A DNA stretch of 6,847 nucleotides from Nitrosomonas europaea (GCF_900167395.1 NZ_FUWK01000065.1:1-6847), one strand, 5' to 3'. Positions 1-6,847 are shown, numbered from the stretch's first letter. The notes: generated by a model not told the origin, from the letters alone. Numbers and translations are program-made.

Positions 1-350
1 CCAGTTCACCCACCGCAAAACAGACAGGCATGCTTTCTTGCATATCTTCGACCGTGTCTGCCTGGAAAATGGTACGGAACATCGCCTGACCCAGCCAAAT
101 CACCCCTGGACCAATGGTCAAGTCGAACGCATGAACCGCACCCTCAAGGAAGCAACCGTCAAACGCTATCATTATGAAAATCATCAACAGTTGCGAGAGC
201 ATCTTTACAGCTTCCTGAATGCCTACAACTTCGCCAGGCGACTCAAAACCTTACGAGGACTCACACCTTACGAATACATCATCAAATGCTGGCAAAACGA
301 ACCTGAACGTTTTATCATCAATCCATACCATCACAAAGTGGGACTAAACA
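1..350 (+). mobile_element. 3' terminal portion of an IS481-family insertion sequence; the rest lies left of the window and the inner boundary is approximate (somewhere in ~340-356)
   Basis: Transposase-like translation runs from the window edge to about ...INPYHHKVGLN (nt ~349). Family members typically end with a ...GLNT-type C-terminus a few nt from the element tip. ...GGACTAAACA at 341-350 would give a TGT... terminal inverted repeat on the other strand. The other end is not in the window, so the IR cannot be confirmed. Confidence 0.65.
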
Positions 351-718
351 TCTACCGGGCGCAGCAGGATCATTTCCAGCTTGTCGGAACGGATCGGCTT
401 GAAATCATGCGCGGGCACGGCATTCAACGACATGCCTCGAAACAGCGTTGGCACATCAGCGATAAAACTACCCAGCTTGCCGCCCAGCGCTTCCACGTAA
501 AGCGTCCAGAAACGCTTCACGAAATAGGCATGCCGGTCACCCTGCATGATACTGTCACTGCCGTAACCGACATGAGCAACGATATTTTTGAGCAACCCTG
601 CCTGACCGGCTGCGCCGAACGGCGTTTTGCCCTGGGAAGCGAACAGATGCCCATCGGACGGAAAGCGGCCACCCGTCATCGAAAAGGCAGGCTCCTTCGG
701 ATCGTCGTAGAATGGTGA
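2..718 (+). CDS. IS481-family DDE (rve/integrase-core) transposase, 5'-partial C-terminal fragment; only 2..~349 looks like transposase, and ~350..718 is stop-free read-through into the flanking gene's antisense strand
   Basis: The frame is open from nt 2: QFTHRKTDRHAFLHIFDRVCLENGTEHRLTQPNHPWTNGQVERMNRTLKEATVKRYHYENHQQLREHLYSFLNAYNFARRLKTLRGLTPYEYI... The HPWTNGQVERMNRT block carries the third catalytic acidic residue (E) of the DDE triad. The YN..R.H..L.G.TP block is the canonical rve C-terminus. The tail after GLNI (YRAQQDHFQLVGTDRLEIMRGHG...) is R/H/Q-rich and antisense-like, and it overlaps a well-formed minus-strand gene. Confidence 0.8.
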   Translation, partial: QFTHRKTDRHAFLHIFDRVCLENGTEHRLTQPNHPWTNGQVERMNRTLKEATVKRYHYENHQQLREHLYSFLNAYNFARRLKTLRGLTPYEYIIKCWQNEPERFIINPYHHKVGLNIYRAQQDHFQLVGTDRLEIMRGHGIQRHASKQRWHISDKTTQLAAQRFHVKRPETLHEIGMPVTLHDTVTAVTDMSNDIFEQPCLTGCAERRFALGSEQMPIGRKAATRHRKGRLLRIVVEW

Positions 719-1156
719 GCCCAGCACGATCACATCCAACCGCTTTCCCTGTGCAAAATGATGAGCTGCATAGCGTAAAAGCTGTGGCAGCCGGACTGCA
801 CCGGGTACGGACGGATGACCTGCCCCGCCAGGCATAACCGATTTATCCGCAAAGCGTTTAAGAGCTGCCACTGCGTCACGATTCAGGCCAAGCCGTGCTT
901 TAGGATTGTTGTAAGCCGGATTGTCGGGAATAATAAATTCGCCGATGATCGAGAGGTGATAACCATCGATCAAGGTTACATGGCTGCCTTGATCCAGTTG
1001 CGTCAACTGCTTCAGTAACGCCACGGAATGCCGCTTGGCGTCATCCAGCGCATAATACGGCGAAACCGCCACGACCAAATCGCGGGCAAACGCCACTGGC
1101 GCAACCATCAGCGTCATGCACAATAAGCCCAGCAATAACAAAGTATTTTTATTCAT
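344..1156 (-). CDS. Secreted/periplasmic hypothetical protein (270 aa) with a Sec signal peptide; its 3' end may be altered by the IS insertion
   Basis: ATG at 1156 is preceded by GGAGG (complement of 1162-1166) with a 5-nt spacer. The N-terminus MNKNTLLLLGLLCMTLMVAPVAFA|RD has the n/h/c regions and an AxA-type cleavage site of a SPase I signal peptide; it is not a lipobox. It starts 15 nt after the upstream gene's stop, which indicates an operon. I recognise no family. Confidence 0.7.
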   Translation of the reverse strand: MNKNTLLLLGLLCMTLMVAPVAFARDLVVAVSPYYALDDAKRHSVALLKQLTQLDQGSHVTLIDGYHLSIIGEFIIPDNPAYNNPKARLGLNRDAVAALKRFADKSVMPGGAGHPSVPGAVRLPQLLRYAAHHFAQGKRLDVIVLGSPFYDDPKEPAFSMTGGRFPSDGHLFASQGKTPFGAAGQAGLLKNIVAHVGYGSDSIMQGDRHAYFVKRFWTLYVEALGGKLGSFIADVPTLFRGMSLNAVPAHDFKPIRSDKLEMILLRPVDV

Positions 1157-1171: not shown

Positions 1172-2227
1172 TTAGTGGTCGGTATGGGCATTCATCGTGG
1201 CCACATGGCGAGCACGCAAACTGACGAATTCCATGACTTTGTCGTTGATGAACGCTTCGCGCCGGGCTTCCAATTCAACCAGACGCCCATGCAACTCGCC
1301 CCGCTTCTCACGCAAGGCTTCATGAACGGTGCGTTGCTCCTTCAAGGCTTTTTCAAGTTCGAGGTATTCCAGATTTTCGATATAGACATCAGGGGAATAG
1401 CGCATGTAGATGTCTTCTGCGGCTAGAAACAGGGCGCTGGCCATGAGCAATTCAACCAACAACTGTGACCAGACAAAGGCAAACCCATAGTCGGTGCTTT
1501 CACCGAAGGAATCCCAATCAATCGAGCTGGCCACCCCGGAATAAGTCAGGCCAAAAAGGCCGCCCCAAAAGAGAAAAGCCATACCGGTTGCCGCGTAAAT
1601 GCACTTGGCATATAACCTGCGTGAGCTATCGTAAATCATGAAGTTGGTCACGTACTTAACTGAAACCGAGGCAATCGGCATCAATGCCGAGATCATCGTC
1701 GCCAGCCAGGGTTTTTCGATAAAAACAGCATTACCGGATGAAACCAGGTTGGCGTAGACATTTCCCATTCCCAGCCCTGCGGCAATGGTCAGGCAGAAAA
1801 CTAGAACGCATAACAGGATCTGATCTTTTCTACGCCAGTCAGTCCAACCGACATTCTCAACGCTTTTCCCGCCAATGCTGTGCAGTGTGCCGCTTTTGAT
1901 GTAACGCCGGGTATTCGCCAGCTTCACTTCCAAATCACTCAGAAATTTGAGTGAAACTTTAAAGGCGACATCGATATCCTCACTATCCAGTCGCAGCTTC
2001 GTCAGCTCAGCACCGAATTGTTGATCGGCCTGATGAGTCGCTTGCTCGGTGGCCATTGAGCCAGCGATTTCAGCATCGTTGTGATGAACGAGTCTGCGGA
2101 AAAAAACATCTGCTCCAGTGTTCTCCGTATCCGGCGGTTTCCTGGCTGAATCTGCCGTGCCGCTCTCAACCAGTTGTAACGCCAGTGGTTGTTTCTTGTC
2201 CTTGATTTTCGTTTTGGCTGTTGCCAT
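1172..2227 (-). CDS. Integral membrane protein (351 aa): ~150-aa cytoplasmic N-terminus, four predicted TM helices, C-terminal coiled coil; function unknown
   Basis: I place the start at ATG 2227 (MATAKTKIKDKK...) rather than the ORF-track start at 2350, because AAGGAG (complement of 2234-2239) sits 6 nt upstream of it. Hydrophobic segments are ILLCVLVFCLTIAAGLGMGNVYANLV, WLATMISALMPIASVSV, IYAATGMAFLFWGGLFGLTY and FAFVWSQLLVELLMASALFLAA. The C-terminus is heptad-like and charged (LEYLELEKALKEQRTVHEALREKRGELHGRLVELEARREAF). The stop is TAA at 1172-1174. Confidence 0.7.
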   Translation of the reverse strand: MATAKTKIKDKKQPLALQLVESGTADSARKPPDTENTGADVFFRRLVHHNDAEIAGSMATEQATHQADQQFGAELTKLRLDSEDIDVAFKVSLKFLSDLEVKLANTRRYIKSGTLHSIGGKSVENVGWTDWRRKDQILLCVLVFCLTIAAGLGMGNVYANLVSSGNAVFIEKPWLATMISALMPIASVSVKYVTNFMIYDSSRRLYAKCIYAATGMAFLFWGGLFGLTYSGVASSIDWDSFGESTDYGFAFVWSQLLVELLMASALFLAAEDIYMRYSPDVYIENLEYLELEKALKEQRTVHEALREKRGELHGRLVELEARREAFINDKVMEFVSLRARHVATMNAHTDH

Positions 2228-2310
2228 GACAGTCTCCTTGTAAAGATGAAACAGGTAAACCGTCTGGCATGGTAATGATGGCGCTCGTGAAGTTTGGGAA
2301 ATGGAAGTTA

Positions 2311-2354
2311 TAAAGAAAAGCAGGTGTCCCAGAAGAATAATCCGGAACACCCGC
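2311..2354 (-). terminator. Rho-independent terminator downstream of the 120-aa gene (A-tract / hairpin / U-tract, so possibly bidirectional)
   Basis: The minus-strand RNA reads UAG-CAAAAA-GCGGGUGUUCC-(13-nt loop GGAUUAUUCUUCU)-GGGACACCUGC-UUUUCUUUAU. The stem is 11 bp (arms 2344-2354 and 2320-2330) with two G.U pairs, followed by a U-rich tract. It begins 6 nt after the stop at 2361-2363. On the plus strand the same stem is followed by TTTTT (2355-2359). Confidence 0.6.
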
Positions 2355-2360
2355 TTTTTG

Positions 2361-2723
2361 CTACTTACTGAAATGCCTGGCTATCTCAGGATGTTTAATT
2401 TTAAAAAAGAGATCAATCAACCGAAGACGCTCAAGCATGATCACGTCACGATGCGGATCACCTTTCTCATCTTCCTCAAAATAATAGGAAAACCAGCGAG
2501 GATCACCAAGTACTTTATCCACATCAGGGATAGGCCACCGGATACCGTTCGAAAGGAGAATAATGCCATCAAAATTGTAGATGGCATCGGCGATGACATT
2601 TGGCCATTCTCGCCGCGAAATATTCATGTTTCGCGCCGCGAGCCAAAGTCTCTTCTTATAGACCGGATTATTCAATACACCGATGGTTACTATAAAAACT
2701 ATTAACTTTTCATCGTATTTCAT
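2361..2723 (-). CDS. Hypothetical cytoplasmic protein, 120 aa, no recognisable family
   Basis: The ORF is intact. AAGGAG (complement of 2735-2740) lies upstream of ATG 2723, with a rather long 11-nt spacer. It has its own terminator. The sequence MKYDEKLIVFIVTIGVLNN...EEDEKGDPHRDVIMLERLRLIDLFFKIKHPEIARHFSK has no signal peptide or TM segment. GC is intermediate (43-45% in two sampled 60-nt lines). Confidence 0.65.
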   Translation of the reverse strand: MKYDEKLIVFIVTIGVLNNPVYKKRLWLAARNMNISRREWPNVIADAIYNFDGIILLSNGIRWPIPDVDKVLGDPRWFSYYFEEDEKGDPHRDVIMLERLRLIDLFFKIKHPEIARHFSK

Positions 2724-2742
2724 AATTGAGACTTCTCCTTAA

Positions 2743-3258
<516 letters not shown>

Positions 3259-3419
3259 AAACTGCGTATGTGATTTTGTACCAGTTAAATGCCAGGATAA
3301 ATGTCAACATACCATTGATTTTTAGTACAATCCTGTTTTTGTAATTATTTTCCCAATACTCTAACCGTATTCGTTTTGAAGGACTGCGCAAACAAATATA
3401 TCAAAGAATCCTGTTATCC

Positions 3420-6400
3420 ATGACAGGGGCAGTCCGTCGAAATGTCCGAAAAAGGCTCAATAAAAATCAGAAGCAATTAAGGCAGAACTGGGAAGGTTAT
3501 CACCTTTTGGAATTTGCCAAGACTATCCGGCCAGTCAAACAGGATACAAAAAGAAGAAAAGAGCTTGATGATCATCTCGTTAGCAATGGTATCGGCGGAT
3601 TTGAAACACTTCAGAAACTGCCAGCTGACAACAAGACTGCTTTTACTACTGAAAAATCAGATGGTGTTTTTGAAAGCTTGGCAGAATTTCAAGACATACC
3701 CACTTTTGTTTGCTTTTTAAACTTTCTGGAATTCTGTCGGAATTCCATTCCCCGCAGGCCGTTGGATGTGTTTGATGGCAATGACACATTATCAATCGAA
3801 ATTGACGGAAAACGCAAAGCCGTAACGCTGGATTATGCAATCGATGATTTCAAGAGGCACGCCAAGACTGTTGAAGAAAGACTTAAACTTGAATCTTCCC
3901 AGAGCAGCACTGGACAGGCAGACCCAATCCAGCCACGCCTAACCATACCTCAAGCAAGAGAGAACAATCCCAATTACTTTGCCAATGCTGTTTTGGATGT
4001 GATTGGTCGTGACGAGCAAAAATCTCGTTTAAAAGCGTTTTTGGAATGCGATAAAAATGTTGCATGGTTTCAGCTTGCAGGTGTTGCCGGACAAGGCAAA
4101 AGTCGCTTGGCATTTGATTTAATCAAAGTTGCCGAAGAGTTAGGTTTTCGAGCCGGTTTTCTTACAGAAAATGACATCAAGTTTTTCAAAGATCAGTGGA
4201 AGGACTGGCAACCCGACAAGCCCTATTTGCTGATATTCGATTATGTGATTGGGCGCGAAGAACAAATCAAACCCATTTTTCAAACTCTAATTTCCAATCA
4301 AGATGGTTATTGTCACAATATCCGTATTCTCTTGGTTGAAAGGCAGCGATGGGATCAGGGAAACGTAATAGAAACACAAGATCAAATCAACAAAGATGCA
4401 CCACGGCAATTAATAGCTATCAGCAATAAAGCGCCATGGTTTCTCAAGCTGTGTGAAGAAGGTGACTCTGAAGGTGAACGTCTCGCCCCCTTTCGTTTTG
4501 ATAACGGTGTTGAAGAACTTAAAGAACTTGGTCAAGATAATCTGGCTTCAATAGTTAAGCAGTTATTATCCGGCAAAACCCTCACCCTATCCGATGATGT
4601 GTTAGAAGAAACATTGGAACGGATCGATAATACTGGCCGTCCATTGTATGCTTATTTACTAGCACAACAATTAAGCGAAAGTGAGGAAGGTTTTCGAAGC
4701 TGGACAAAGATCGATTTGCTGAATGGTCAGCTGAAGCGAGATAAAAGACGCTGGGAGCAGGCTTTTAACGATAAAGCGCCAACTTGGGGGGATTCTCATG
4801 AAGCTATGAAGCTAGCTGTACTTGCAACCATTGTTCGCCAGATAAATTTTGAGGATGAAATAATTAAATCAAATTTTGGCCATATCGATTCATCTCTTGG
4901 AAAAGAAGCCTTAGCTATTACGAACAGCTATCTTGTTAATAATGATAATCGTCCTCATAAAATTCATGCATTAGAACCTGACTTATTGGGTGAATGGTTT
5001 GTTTTGTATTGTTTTTACCAAGGCCTTAATTTCGAAGAATTATTAAACATTGCCTGGGAATATTCACCAAATGATACAGCAATGTTTCTAATAAGAGTTA
5101 TGCAAGATTTTATTGATTTAACAAAAACATATAATGACTGGAACTTAACCGAAAAACTGTTAGCGCATAAACCCCCGCATGAAAACCATTATCTAGTTTT
5201 AGCCAGAGTTGCAGTCTTTATCTCTTATGAACTAGGTCGTAGAAATTTAACAATACCTCATAACATTATCATTGCATTAGAACATGCTGCAAATTTGTCT
5301 AATGTTATTGCTATGGATTACCTTGGTTTCTTTTACCAACAAGGCCTAGGAGTTGTAAGAAATCCTGAAAAAGCTATTTATTGGTTTCAAATGGCTGTTA
5401 ATAAAAAAAGCGATACAGCCATGGTTAATCTAGGAATTTGCTATCAAAAAGGCGAAGGGGTTAAACAGAATCTAAATGCAGCATTCAAACTGTTTCAACG
5501 AGCAGTTAAGCTAGATAACAGCACAGCCATGTTCTATCTTGGCCTTTGCTATCAAAGAAGTGAAGGAGTTAAGGAGGACTTAAATGAAGCTTTTGCTCTA
5601 TATCAGCAGGCGGCTGATAAAGGTAACAGTACGGCTACAGCATATCTTGGTCTTTGTTATCAGTATGAAGTGGGAGTTAAGCAGGATTTAGACAAAGCCA
5701 TTTCTCAATATCAACGGGCAGTTGATGAAGGCAATAGTTTGGCTATGGTATTTCTTGGACGCTGCTATCAATATGGCGAAGGAGTCAACCAGAACATAAA
5801 TAAGGCTATTGCACTGTATCAGAAGGCGACTGATAAAGGTGACAGTACGGCTATGACATGTCTTGCACTTTGTTACCAAGATGGCAAAGGAGTTGATCAA
5901 GACTGGAATAAGGCTATTAACTTGTATCAGCAAGCAGTTAAAAAAAATGATTGTACAGCCATGTACTATCTTGGCGCTTGCTATGAAAATGGTTATGGAG
6001 TTAAACAAAATCGGAGTAGTGCTATCGAATTGTATCGGATGGCTGCAAATCAAGGTAATAGTAACGCGATGGTTAATCTTGGCTTTTATTATCGAAATGG
6101 CATAGGAGTGAAGCAGAATCGGAAAGAGGCAGTTAAGTTATTTCAACGCGCCGCTAAAGTAGGTGATTACAGAGCAATGTGCAATCTTGGTGTCTGCTAT
6201 GAAAATGGTGAAGGAGTTGATCAAGATTGGAATAAAGCTATTAGCTTGTATCAGCAAGCAACTAAGGCTGGTGAGATTAGAGCCATTAGTAATATTCAAA
6301 ATATACTCTTACGAAATTTTCTAGGTGAAGGTAATTACAAAAGTCGAAAAACTAATGGTTGTACAAGAAATAAGCTTTCACACTTAGTCGAGAAACTTGC

Positions 6401-6518
6401 ATTTGACCCTCCCATTCTTGGAGGAGATTGGAAGCCACTTCTCACTGAAGAAATAAAAGCTTGTATCGATAAAGTTATTGTACCTTTTGAAATTTTAGAT
6501 GTAGTAGTTGAGATCTGA
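3420..6518 (+). CDS. 1032-aa STAND-class P-loop NTPase with an unknown N-terminal domain, nine C-terminal Sel1-like (SLR) repeats and a short unique tail; NLR/Avs-like architecture
   Basis: This is a 3.1-kb uninterrupted ORF. ATG 3420 is the first canonical start after the in-frame TAA at 3342-3344, and no SD is visible. Motifs: pre-P-loop VIGRDEQKSRLKAFL (aa 193-207); Walker A GVAGQGKS (aa 221-228, nt 4080-4103); Walker B YLLIFDYV (aa 269-276, nt 4224-4247); ILLVERQR (aa 302-309, sensor-1-like Arg); GxP motif TGRPLYAYLLAQ (aa 405-416); nine 36-aa repeats of the form xxxAMxxLGxCYQxGxGVxQ(D/N)xxKAIxLYQxAxxxG (aa 628-951). There is no signal peptide or TM segment. Confidence 0.9.
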   Translation: MTGAVRRNVRKRLNKNQKQLRQNWEGYHLLEFAKTIRPVKQDTKRRKELDDHLVSNGIGGFETLQKLPADNKTAFTTEKSDGVFESLAEFQDIPTFVCFLNFLEFCRNSIPRRPLDVFDGNDTLSIEIDGKRKAVTLDYAIDDFKRHAKTVEERLKLESSQSSTGQADPIQPRLTIPQARENNPNYFANAVLDVIGRDEQKSRLKAFLECDKNVAWFQLAGVAGQGKSRLAFDLIKVAEELGFRAGFLTENDIKFFKDQWKDWQPDKPYLLIFDYVIGREEQIKPIFQTLISNQDGYCHNIRILLVERQRWDQGNVIETQDQINKDAPRQLIAISNKAPWFLKLCEEGDSEGERLAPFRFDNGVEELKELGQDNLASIVKQLLSGKTLTLSDDVLEETLERIDNTGRPLYAYLLAQQLSESEEGFRSWTKIDLLNGQLKRDKRRWEQAFNDKAPTWGDSHEAMKLAVLATIVRQINFEDEIIKSNFGHIDSSLGKEALAITNSYLVNNDNRPHKIHALEPDLLGEWFVLYCFYQGLNFEELLNIAWEYSPNDTAMFLIRVMQDFIDLTKTYNDWNLTEKLLAHKPPHENHYLVLARVAVFISYELGRRNLTIPHNIIIALEHAANLSNVIAMDYLGFFYQQGLGVVRNPEKAIYWFQMAVNKKSDTAMVNLGICYQKGEGVKQNLNAAFKLFQRAVKLDNSTAMFYLGLCYQRSEGVKEDLNEAFALYQQAADKGNSTATAYLGLCYQYEVGVKQDLDKAISQYQRAVDEGNSLAMVFLGRCYQYGEGVNQNINKAIALYQKATDKGDSTAMTCLALCYQDGKGVDQDWNKAINLYQQAVKKNDCTAMYYLGACYENGYGVKQNRSSAIELYRMAANQGNSNAMVNLGFYYRNGIGVKQNRKEAVKLFQRAAKVGDYRAMCNLGVCYENGEGVDQDWNKAISLYQQATKAGEIRAISNIQNILLRNFLGEGNYKSRKTNGCTRNKLSHLVEKLAFDPPILGGDWKPLLTEEIKACIDKVIVPFEILDVVVEI
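3987..4679 (+). other. NTPase (NOD-like) module of the 1032-aa protein, aa ~190-420
   Basis: The order hGR(D/E)xE...L - GxxGxGKS - hhhhD - hhh(T/V)xR - GxP(L) matches AAA_16/NACHT/NB-ARC-type STAND ATPases. Subfamily assignment needs an HMM or structure search. Domain borders are approximate. Confidence 0.7.
5301..6272 (+). repeat. Nine in-frame tandem 108-nt units encoding Sel1-like repeats (unit starts 5301, 5409, 5517, 5625, 5733, 5841, 5949, 6057, 6165)
   Basis: The 36-aa periodicity is visible in the translation. Conserved positions are A-M, L-G, C-Y, G-x-G-V and A-x-x-L-(Y/F)-Q, as in the Sel1/SLR family. Nucleotide identity between units is mostly modest, except units 6 and 9 (see findings). 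Confidence 0.85.
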
Positions 6519-6560
6519 TCTGACAGTTACCCGATTTGACGAGTGCCTGTTAGATCAGAT
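6513..6560. repeat. 14-bp inverted repeat (ATCTGATCTGACAG-N20-CTGTTAGATCAGAT) filling the gap between the two convergent stop codons; either a shared terminator hairpin or IS terminal sequence
   Basis: The arms are at 6513-6526 and 6547-6560, with 13/14 complementary positions (one G.T). The left arm contains the STAND gene's TGA (6516-6518). The right arm ends 1 nt before the transposase stop (complement of 6561-6563). There is no clear U-tract on either side, so a terminator call is weak. Confidence 0.4.
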
Positions 6561-6847
6561 TCAGTTATTCAATTCGGTAATTTTATCGTCCCATATCTCC
6601 TTAGCGTCAATTAAAGTTTGCATCGGGGTGCGTCCACAGCACATTTTTCCCTGGTGAGTCCGCACACTGTTGTAGTACGCCATCCAATCATCCAGATCGT
6701 GTTGTAACTCTTCAATGGACTGGTAAATCTTGCGCCGGAATGTCACCTGGTAGAACTCCTGCAAGATGGTTTTGTGAAAGCGTTCGCAAATACCGTTGGT
6801 CTGCGGATGATTGGCTTTCGTTTTGGAATGTTCGATGTCATTGAGTG
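6521..6847 (-). mobile_element. 3' terminal portion of a second insertion sequence (rve-type DDE transposase; IS481/IS3-superfamily-like); inner boundary uncertain (6519-6560)
   Basis: The transposase fragment reads inward and stops at 6561. The element tip must therefore lie in the 42 nt between that stop and the STAND gene's stop. TGACAG... at 6521 would give a TG...CA-type terminus, but this is a guess. Confidence 0.55.
6561..6847 (-). CDS. DDE (rve/integrase-core) transposase, 5'-partial C-terminal fragment, unrelated in sequence to the left-hand IS
   Basis: The minus-strand frame is open to the window edge: ..LNDIEHSKTKANHPQTNGICERFHKTILQEFYQVTFRRKIYQSIEELQHDLDDWMAYYNSVRTHQGKMCCGRTPMQTLIDAKEIWDDKITELNN*. 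HPQTNGICERFH carries the catalytic E. YN..R.HQG....TP is the rve C-terminal signature. The ORF-track M at 6764 is actually an internal TTG (Leu). Confidence 0.85.
   Translation of the reverse strand, partial: LNDIEHSKTKANHPQTNGICERFHKTILQEFYQVTFRRKIYQSIEELQHDLDDWMAYYNSVRTHQGKMCCGRTPMQTLIDAKEIWDDKITELNN

Follow-up and report, generated by a model that had tools for sequence, protein, structure and literature searches.

We analyzed a 6,847-nt stretch of DNA from Nitrosomonas europaea (GCF_900167395.1, NZ_FUWK01000065.1:1-6847; "the window" refers to this whole stretch). It carries five genes between two insertion sequence (IS) ends: g270, gTM351 and g120 on the minus strand, and g98 and a 1032-aa open reading frame (ORF) on the plus strand. 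The ORF lies exactly where a first-pass annotation, made from the sequence alone, had placed it. The reading that we favor, and consider fairly probable, is that it encodes a STAND NTPase with a Sel1-repeat array from a clade that existing models do not describe, that proteins of this clade are conflict or defense sensors carried by a mobile element, and that the copy in the window is an IS-cut remnant and probably impaired. Loci of homologs are given L-numbers and homolog proteins P-numbers, and features of the window are collected in Table 1.

A STAND-type NTPase outside the curated models

STAND is the best-supported assignment for the NTPase on the basis of its motifs, its domain order, its top structural matches and near-threshold nSTAND matches. 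Alignments of 33 and 40 homologs showed invariant or near-invariant positions that include G221, G224-S228, D274, E307/R308, G406/R407/P408 and a PDLLGEW block at residues 520-526. The first-pass annotation had identified K227 (in GVAGQGKS), D274 (in LLIFDY), a sensor Arg and a GxP motif; all of these positions are right, and they are invariant or nearly so in 33-40 homologs. D274 is followed by a near-invariant tyrosine (D274 and Tyr275 at 4239-4244) and not by a second acidic residue, which is usual after the Walker B Asp in STAND ATPases, and an invariant Glu307 stands directly before the sensor-like Arg308 on the next strand. The Tyr after D274 together with Glu307 may reflect an unusual catalytic arrangement or slow hydrolysis.

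AlphaFold2 gave confident models (predicted confidence, pLDDT, of 83.6 for the full-length protein and 83.9 for residues 1-625) with a P-loop domain, a helical domain beginning at the GRP motif and a winged-helix-like unit. G406-P408 lie at the start of helix 408-420, and residues 461-516 have a winged-helix-like pattern of helices and strands with a pLDDT of ~90, judged without domain-level superposition. In Foldseek searches, the top matches of residues 1-625 were the NB-ARC proteins NRC3 (E = 1.6e-6), ZAR1 (E = 3.5e-6) and NRC4 (range to 2e-5), over 520-600 columns. These were followed by ORC/Cdc6, DnaA, FtsH and RFC, and then by EfAvs5 (E = 5e-5) and CED-4. The full-length model matched the STAND-TPR protein 6mfv (E = 2.8e-7), SAMD9 and EfAvs5 (E = 1.5e-6) over 765-1037 columns. 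With NLRs and Avs5 as its closest PDB matches, the confident model supports the fold that had been proposed.

Sequence models gave a weaker signal. Among the 33 homologs, Pfam nSTAND5 matched 11, nSTAND3 matched 9 and AAA_16 matched 3, all below the curated cut-offs; the best scores were 33.9 bits (cut-off 34), 25.3 bits (27.2) and 26.6 bits (32.6), respectively. The window protein had no match at E ≤ 1 to NACHT (PF05729) or to any nSTAND model in Pfam. The clade lies near nSTAND5 and nSTAND3 and is captured by no curated model. The nSTAND families are "novel STAND" NTPases that belong to conflict systems of prokaryotes and frequently carry TPR-S sensors. Nine relatives compared with Avs models likewise had no match, except for the SIR2 part of P0081. 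The central STAND switch of the first-pass annotation thus stands on the motifs, the model, the NLR and Avs5 matches and the sub-threshold nSTAND matches, but no Avs, NACHT or NB-ARC model reached threshold. Among the Pfam families that the annotation had named, Sel1 scored far over its cut-off, NACHT gave nothing, NB-ARC reached only E = 0.21, and AAA_16 appeared below threshold in homologs only.

The Sel1 array and the N-terminal domain

The NTPase is followed by nine Sel1-like repeats, as had been reported. Pfam Sel1 (PF08238) matched in 9 stretches (E = 5.5e-81; 264.6 bits, cut-off 30.7) that, read in register, form nine exact 36-aa repeats, and five of these are still seen as 108-nt DNA repeats at 5457-5996. 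The protein also scored 34.5 bits on TPR-S (cut-off 27.6), and NCBIfam gave Sel1-type matches only. The array was modeled as helical pairs with a pLDDT above 90, and the top Foldseek matches were Sel1 proteins (6ok3, 4bwr, LceB, LpnE, HcpC).

The implied novelty of a Sel1 sensor did not hold. Avs5 consists of a Sir2 domain, an nSTAND3 NTPase and TPR or Sel1-like repeats, the latter in PaAvs5-1 and PaAvs5-2 (PMC12931631), so a Sel1-type sensor is not a new principle. About 80 homologs share the architecture of the window protein; the names that sources give to relatives are "tetratricopeptide repeat protein" or "SEL1-like repeat protein". A tblastn search of plasmids with the NTPase gave one weak partial match.

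The N-terminal region varies among STAND homologs. The domain found in the window protein was modeled with a pLDDT of 80-92 over residues 21-70 and 81-120, and lower elsewhere. Matches are rare, with 24 cluster representatives among 1.84 billion, and always N-terminal. Residues 1-165 had no Pfam match at E ≤ 1, hence no recognizable effector (nuclease, Sir2, protease or TIR). The domain also heads NTPases of the NACHT/NPHP3_N and AAA_16 types and TPR-only proteins; in P0087, P0097, P0092, P0099, P0103 and P0104 it stands before NACHT/NPHP3_N or AAA_16, or directly before TPR or TPR-S repeats with no recognized NTPase. Such N-terminal shuffling is typical of NLR-like output modules. A role as an adaptor that pairs with a neighboring protein was ruled out, as a BLAST search of all ORFs in 48 loci with 30 N-termini retrieved nothing but other STAND N-termini.

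The copy in the window is truncated

Judged by comparison with homologous loci, the window is a remnant that was cut at both ends by two different IS481-family elements. The IS remnants noted on both sides in the first-pass annotation were confirmed: C-terminal parts of IS481-family transposases are encoded at both window ends (NCBIfam transpos_IS481, E = 8.8e-28 at the left end, covering profile positions 206-283 of 284, and E = 7.3e-10 at the right end). Homology of the cassette DNA to L006, L082 and L003 starts at window position 351-357. On the other side, the window matches L003, L004 and L089 up to ~6498, the point at which IS sequence takes over. The right IS supplies the last 6 codons and the stop codon (6516-6518) of the STAND ORF, and the stop codons of both this ORF and g270 are inside IS-derived sequence.

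The last 83 residues of the protein align at 39-58% to internal positions of P0003, P0004, P0006-P0010, P0015, P0019 and P0022, and full-length close homologs run ~190 residues further (...LDGYLGQYARLLPLKFY...LPILQRQY.G.FRTPLR). Because the homologs continue and the DNA homology ends at the IS, ~190 aa of a C-terminal domain of ~270 aa are missing. What had been described as a unique tail of ~80 aa is the first part of this conserved domain. The first-pass annotation had missed both the 3' cut by the right-hand IS and the coupling-protein/serine-recombinase element described below. The tripartite layout that it proposed is present as to the N-terminal domain, the P-loop switch and the repeats, but the C-terminal end is missing from this copy.

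In PaAvs5-1, removing even the last C-terminal helices abolished function (PMC12931631). The truncated allele in the window is therefore likely impaired, and by this analogy the copy is probably impaired or inactive. The truncation calls for caution, and intact relatives are the better basis for functional work.

At the other end, g270 is 65-80% identical to proteins of 432-449 aa in L003, L006 and L031 that extend ~165 aa beyond it, an alignment by which g270 is truncated by the left IS with the loss of ~165 aa. In a separate case, the STAND homolog P0011 of L003 (12811-13183) ends just past the Sel1 repeats, and a 60-aa fragment of the C-terminal domain is encoded in another frame; this copy also seems to be disrupted at the boundary between the Sel1 repeats and the C-terminal domain.

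We considered the two ISs as the ends of a composite transposon and ruled this out: the transposase fragments differ, and the ends have no long inverted repeat. A hairpin with 21-nt arms at 6513-6560 overlaps the stop of the truncated ORF within IS-derived sequence, and probably belongs to the IS end instead of being a gene terminator. An ORF at 38..718 is a read-through artefact over the left IS junction, with no real gene past ~280.

The gene is part of a recurring coupling-protein element

The loci of homologs show the same head-to-head layout as the window. Homologs of g120, gTM351 and g270 lie 5' of the STAND gene in L003, L006, L011 and L031, and some of them also in L039 and L048. The operon runs on into a type IV coupling protein of 545-600 aa that is VirD4/TraG-like (Pfam T4SS-DNA_transf, 1e-31 to 1e-42; TraG-D_C; TrwB_AAD_bind). 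By this correspondence, the window holds a reduced copy of the divergent coupling-protein operon. In the intact order (L003, L085, L089), the genes for the coupling protein, a secreted protein, a membrane protein and g120 run in one direction, and the small gene, the STAND gene, a gene of family F11 and a large serine recombinase run in the other. The left IS removed the coupling-protein end, and the right side lost the STAND C-terminus and the recombinase end; neither a coupling protein nor a recombinase was found in the window itself.

Linkage was counted over the 32 genome loci that had 6 kb or more of sequence 5' of the STAND gene. A coupling protein was present in 16 of the 32 and a serine recombinase in 13, and every locus with the window-type N-terminal domain (7/7) had the operon of membrane and secreted proteins. 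The linkage reaches down to ~24% NTPase identity, in loci of Henriciella, Ponticaulis, Hyphomonadaceae and related Alphaproteobacteria. A coupling protein and serine recombinases thus recur among the relatives' loci, but no relaxase, attachment site or gene for a type IV secretion system channel was recognized. The non-coupling proteins of the operon had no match in Pfam, NCBIfam or PADLOC. A metagenome scan with a 5-sequence alignment of the g270 family found 7 loci, a number too small for a solid reciprocal test.

The small gene and the STAND gene have a GC content of 38-41% in all nitrosomonad copies, inside an operon of 50-57%; in the window, the STAND ORF has 39.2%, compared to 51-54% for g270 and gTM351. 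The first-pass annotation was right about the AT-rich composition of the gene, but the AT-rich block does not span the distance from IS to IS. It is a two-gene module of g98 and the STAND gene, and the genes of 50-57% GC that had been taken for a flank are part of the same conserved cassette. The annotation had also pointed out that the STAND ORF starts without a Shine-Dalgarno sequence while its neighbors have one. This was confirmed, with GGAG-type sites at g270, gTM351, g120 and g98, and the start without a Shine-Dalgarno is conserved in the homologs of L002, L089, L090 and L003.

The divergent operon was seen in L003, L004, L006, L010, L011, L031, L039, L047 and L048, with middle genes of families F4/F5 or F9/F8. 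In the second version of the operon (L002, L004, L010, L024, L047), another membrane or coiled-coil protein and a 287-aa protein precede the coupling protein; the L002 contig stops before a coupling protein would be reached. The variant membrane protein of L002 had a sub-threshold match to Pfam NACHT_N (26.1 bits, cut-off 30). In variant elements, the STAND gene is followed by a gene for a coiled-coil protein of 265-279 aa, one on the opposite strand for a signal-peptide protein of 152-216 aa (the pair at L002 7019-8276, L004 13079-14349 and L039 13980-15466), and then a small resolvase. Loci of Alphaproteobacteria have, in place of the small upstream gene, a member of family F3 (110-227 aa; L016, L019, L023, L024, L026, L027, L030, L032, L033, L035, L039, L047, L048), with repeats that look MORN/YwqK-like by eye; one member had no match in Pfam.

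Possible roles of the STAND-Sel1 protein

The proposed working of the protein follows its layout: a rare helical N-terminal module, a nucleotide-binding oligomerization module and a Sel1 solenoid, followed in intact relatives by a C-terminal domain of ~270 aa. By analogy with characterized STAND proteins, the repeats and the C-terminal part would hold the ATPase in a closed, ADP-bound state, binding of a ligand would permit nucleotide exchange and oligomerization, and oligomerization would cluster the N-terminal modules as the output. With g98, the STAND gene forms an AT-rich two-gene module inside a recurring proteobacterial mobile element, whose other arm is the operon of g120, a membrane protein, a signal-peptide protein and a VirD4/TraG-like coupling protein, and which is usually bounded by serine recombinases. 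The most likely role would be that of a conflict or defense sensor carried by this element.

A role in phage defense is plausible from gene context, because genes of Gabija, Lamassu, Druantia and SIR2-HerA systems lie near relatives. In L002 (10780-16710), a Druantia-like set of DruA and a protein of more than 1800 aa with DEAD, Helicase_C and MZB domains lies 4 kb 3' of the STAND homolog, past a resolvase. A random 119 of 275 neighbor ORFs from 35 loci included matches to GajA (2e-268, two proteins), LmuB (1e-127), MADS and AriA. The locus L082 has the same operon as the window, at 75-88% protein identity, with ankyrin-like and unassigned genes in the STAND slot. Besides the ankyrin-like protein, the cargo of the element there (4175-8232, 13774-20070) comprises a caspase-like peptidase C14 together with a membrane protein, a SMEK-domain protein and a SIR2 and HerA pair; the caspase, SMEK and SIR2-HerA genes lie elsewhere in the element, outside the STAND slot. 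The coupling-protein gene of L082 is seemingly disrupted (328-aa fragment).

Several results weigh against the reading of a conflict or defense sensor in a STAND clade. No curated model reached threshold on the NTPase, and the window protein had only an NB-ARC match (E = 0.21, 39 residues). There was no Avs match in PADLOC-DB 2.0 at E ≤ 1, and a profile of the NTPase had no match among PDB sequences at E ≤ 10. The E-values in Foldseek are modest, with ORC/Cdc6, DnaA, FtsH and RFC ranking shortly after the NLRs, so that the fold alone says AAA+/STAND and not STAND specifically. No recognizable effector domain was found by Pfam in the N- or C-terminal parts. The defense matches among sampled neighbors come without a background control, which makes the defense context supportive only. 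The homolog neighborhoods did show a recurring mobile element and nearby defense genes, as would be expected from the first-pass annotation, but half of the relatives are solitary in ordinary chromosomal contexts, e.g. beside ABC transporter or Tol-Pal genes. Finally, the identical truncated protein was found on four short contigs. This indicates that the remnant is stable in its population, and the truncated protein may retain some activity.

The alternative that survives best, although we consider it unlikely, is that the STAND-Sel1 protein does not serve defense independently but is a sensor or regulator of the divergent operon. On sensing a signal, it would govern or act by way of the coupling protein and the associated membrane proteins, and the outcome could be the regulation of element transfer, a block on incoming DNA or an abortive response at the membrane. 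The head-to-head arrangement around a shared intergenic region with a 19-nt inverted repeat is consistent with this, as are the depth of the linkage, the coupling protein in half of the counted loci, and the occurrence of the window-type N-terminal domain only together with the operon. Yet in L082 unrelated genes fill the STAND slot beside the same operon, the operon is missing from half of the STAND relatives, Pfam detected no DNA-binding domain in the STAND protein, the N-terminal domain resembles no neighbor protein and gave no sign of homotypic adaptor pairing, and the contrast in GC content suggests separate histories of module and operon.

It is similarly doubtful that the small gene, the STAND-Sel1 gene and the divergent operon make up one functional system of Alpha-, Beta- and Gammaproteobacteria. 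In such a system, an NLR-like sensor would control or act through a membrane coupling ATPase, in DNA exclusion, abortive infection or escape of the element. We know of no description of a coupling protein outside a conjugation machine under a STAND sensor, and we found nothing relevant in the literature on the combination of STAND, Sel1 and coupling protein. A STAND protein that is cargo, as the resident conflict sensor of the element, is more likely than this one system.

Less probable still is the role that the first-pass annotation had in mind, a stand-alone antiviral sensor of the Avs type that is active here, in which the Sel1 repeats would read a phage protein and the N-terminal domain would be a toxic effector. 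The tripartite architecture and motifs are as it proposed, the structure resembles that of EfAvs5 and Avs5 has an nSTAND3 NTPase and Sel1-like repeats, the conserved start without a Shine-Dalgarno is consistent with low expression, and defense genes lie near relatives. This copy is nevertheless without ~190 aa of the conserved C-terminal domain, and PaAvs5-1 lost its function when even the last C-terminal helices were removed (PMC12931631); no Avs hidden Markov model matched; and the N-terminal domain has no similarity to known effectors. An ordinary Sel1/TPR scaffold, with a P-loop that has no switch function, would fit the database names and the Tyr after the Walker B D274, but is very improbable given that the fold matches NLRs and that relatives with only 24-57% overall identity keep Walker A, Walker B, E307/R308 and GRP unchanged, which argues for a selected nucleotide-dependent function.

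Comparison with known systems

The closest characterized system is Avs5 (EfAvs5 structure 9jap), in which, as in the window protein, an N-terminal module precedes a STAND NTPase and a C-terminus of helical repeats. Nine of the 33 homologs had sub-threshold nSTAND3 matches, EfAvs5 was matched by Foldseek over 600-765 columns, and the distant relative P0081 has SIR2_2 at its N-terminus. Unlike Avs5, the window protein has the rare helical domain in place of Sir2, no PADLOC Avs5 match, a long regular array of nine Sel1 repeats, an extra C-terminal domain of ~270 aa in intact relatives, and a setting in a coupling-protein element. nSTAND_NTPase5 (PF25199) and nSTAND3 (PF20720) are the best sequence families for the P-loop domain of the relatives, but all of those matches are below cut-off, and the window protein has none at E ≤ 1.

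The plant NLRs ZAR1 (6j5t), NRC3 (9ria) and NRC4 (9cc8), together with CED-4, are the best structural matches of residues 1-625 and have the same order of P-loop, helical domain with GxP, and winged helix. The plant proteins differ in sequence (11-14% identity; NB-ARC at E = 0.21), in having LRR and not Sel1 repeats, and in their N-terminal domain. The archaeal STAND-TPR protein 6mfv (842 columns, E = 2.8e-7) and MalT-type regulators likewise have a STAND module followed by TPR-class repeats; the window protein differs in that no DNA-binding domain was detected in it and in its setting, which is a mobile element and not a regulon. The long Sel1 array, the uncharacterized N- and C-terminal domains, the sub-threshold models and the coupling-protein element set the family apart from known systems.

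Other features of the window

The g270 protein has a hydrophobic, signal-peptide-like N-terminus (residues 3-32). The gTM351 ORF is open up to a GTG at 2350. An AGGAGA Shine-Dalgarno marks the ATG at 2227, however, which is also where the 351-aa gene called on contig L001 starts. The protein has hydrophobic segments at residues 134-159 and 249-274 and shares 59-80% identity with its positional counterparts in L003, L006 and L031. The g120 family adjoins the STAND gene in L002, L003, L006, L010, L011, L031 and L032. The g98 protein is 55% identical to the product of a 96-aa gene at the same position in L002, and genes of 97-112 aa occupy this position in L089, L090, L003 and L031. These four genes (g270, gTM351, g120, g98) had no match in PADLOC or NCBIfam, and noise only in Pfam. 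The inverted repeat between g120 and g98 may be an operator, perhaps for the small g98 protein. A promoter and terminator scan of 2300-3500 gave nothing above shuffled expectation, an Rfam scan of the window gave no match, and megablast of the whole window had no match in E. coli genomes and plasmids.

Table 1. Positions of genes, protein domains, motifs and IS ends in the window.
Feature	Position	Strand	Description
Left IS481-family inner end	1..350	+	C-terminal part of transposase encoded ~44 to 280
g270	344..1156	-	signal-peptide protein, family F5; first 270 aa of a 420-450-aa family
gTM351	1172..2227	-	membrane protein, family F4, 351 aa
g120	2361..2723	-	small cytoplasmic protein, family F6; first gene of the minus-strand operon
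Inverted repeat, 19-nt arms	2812-2830 / 2846-2864		15-nt spacer, 89% complementary; between g120 and g98
g98	2962..3258	+	small AT-rich gene 5' of the STAND gene; own Shine-Dalgarno
STAND ORF	3420..6518	+	1032 aa, ATG start
N-terminal domain	3420..3914	+	aa 1-165, mostly helical, one beta-hairpin
STAND NTPase module	3915..5294	+	aa 166-625: P-loop, GRP helical domain, winged-helix-like domain, helical linker
Walker A, GVAGQGKS	4080-4103	+	aa 221-228; invariant columns
Walker B, D274 in LLIFDY	4239-4241	+	invariant in 33-40 homologs
E307/R308 in LLVERQRW	4338-4343	+	invariant in homologs
G406-R407-P408 in GRPLYA	4635-4643	+	invariant or nearly so
Nine 36-aa Sel1 repeats	5295..6266	+	aa 626-949
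Capping helix and first ~77 aa of conserved C-terminal domain	6267..6498	+	from homolog alignment
Right IS481-family inner end, different element	6499..6847	-	transposase C-terminus 6561..6764, minus strand

Implications

If the STAND-Sel1 protein is a defense or conflict sensor, it would add an NLR-like clade that Pfam, PADLOC and NCBIfam models miss and that databases label only as TPR or Sel1 proteins. The more unusual point is the linkage to an orphan coupling-protein operon on serine-recombinase elements, which could point to a mobilizable element of a new kind that houses its own sensor, or to a coupling ATPase put to a new use.

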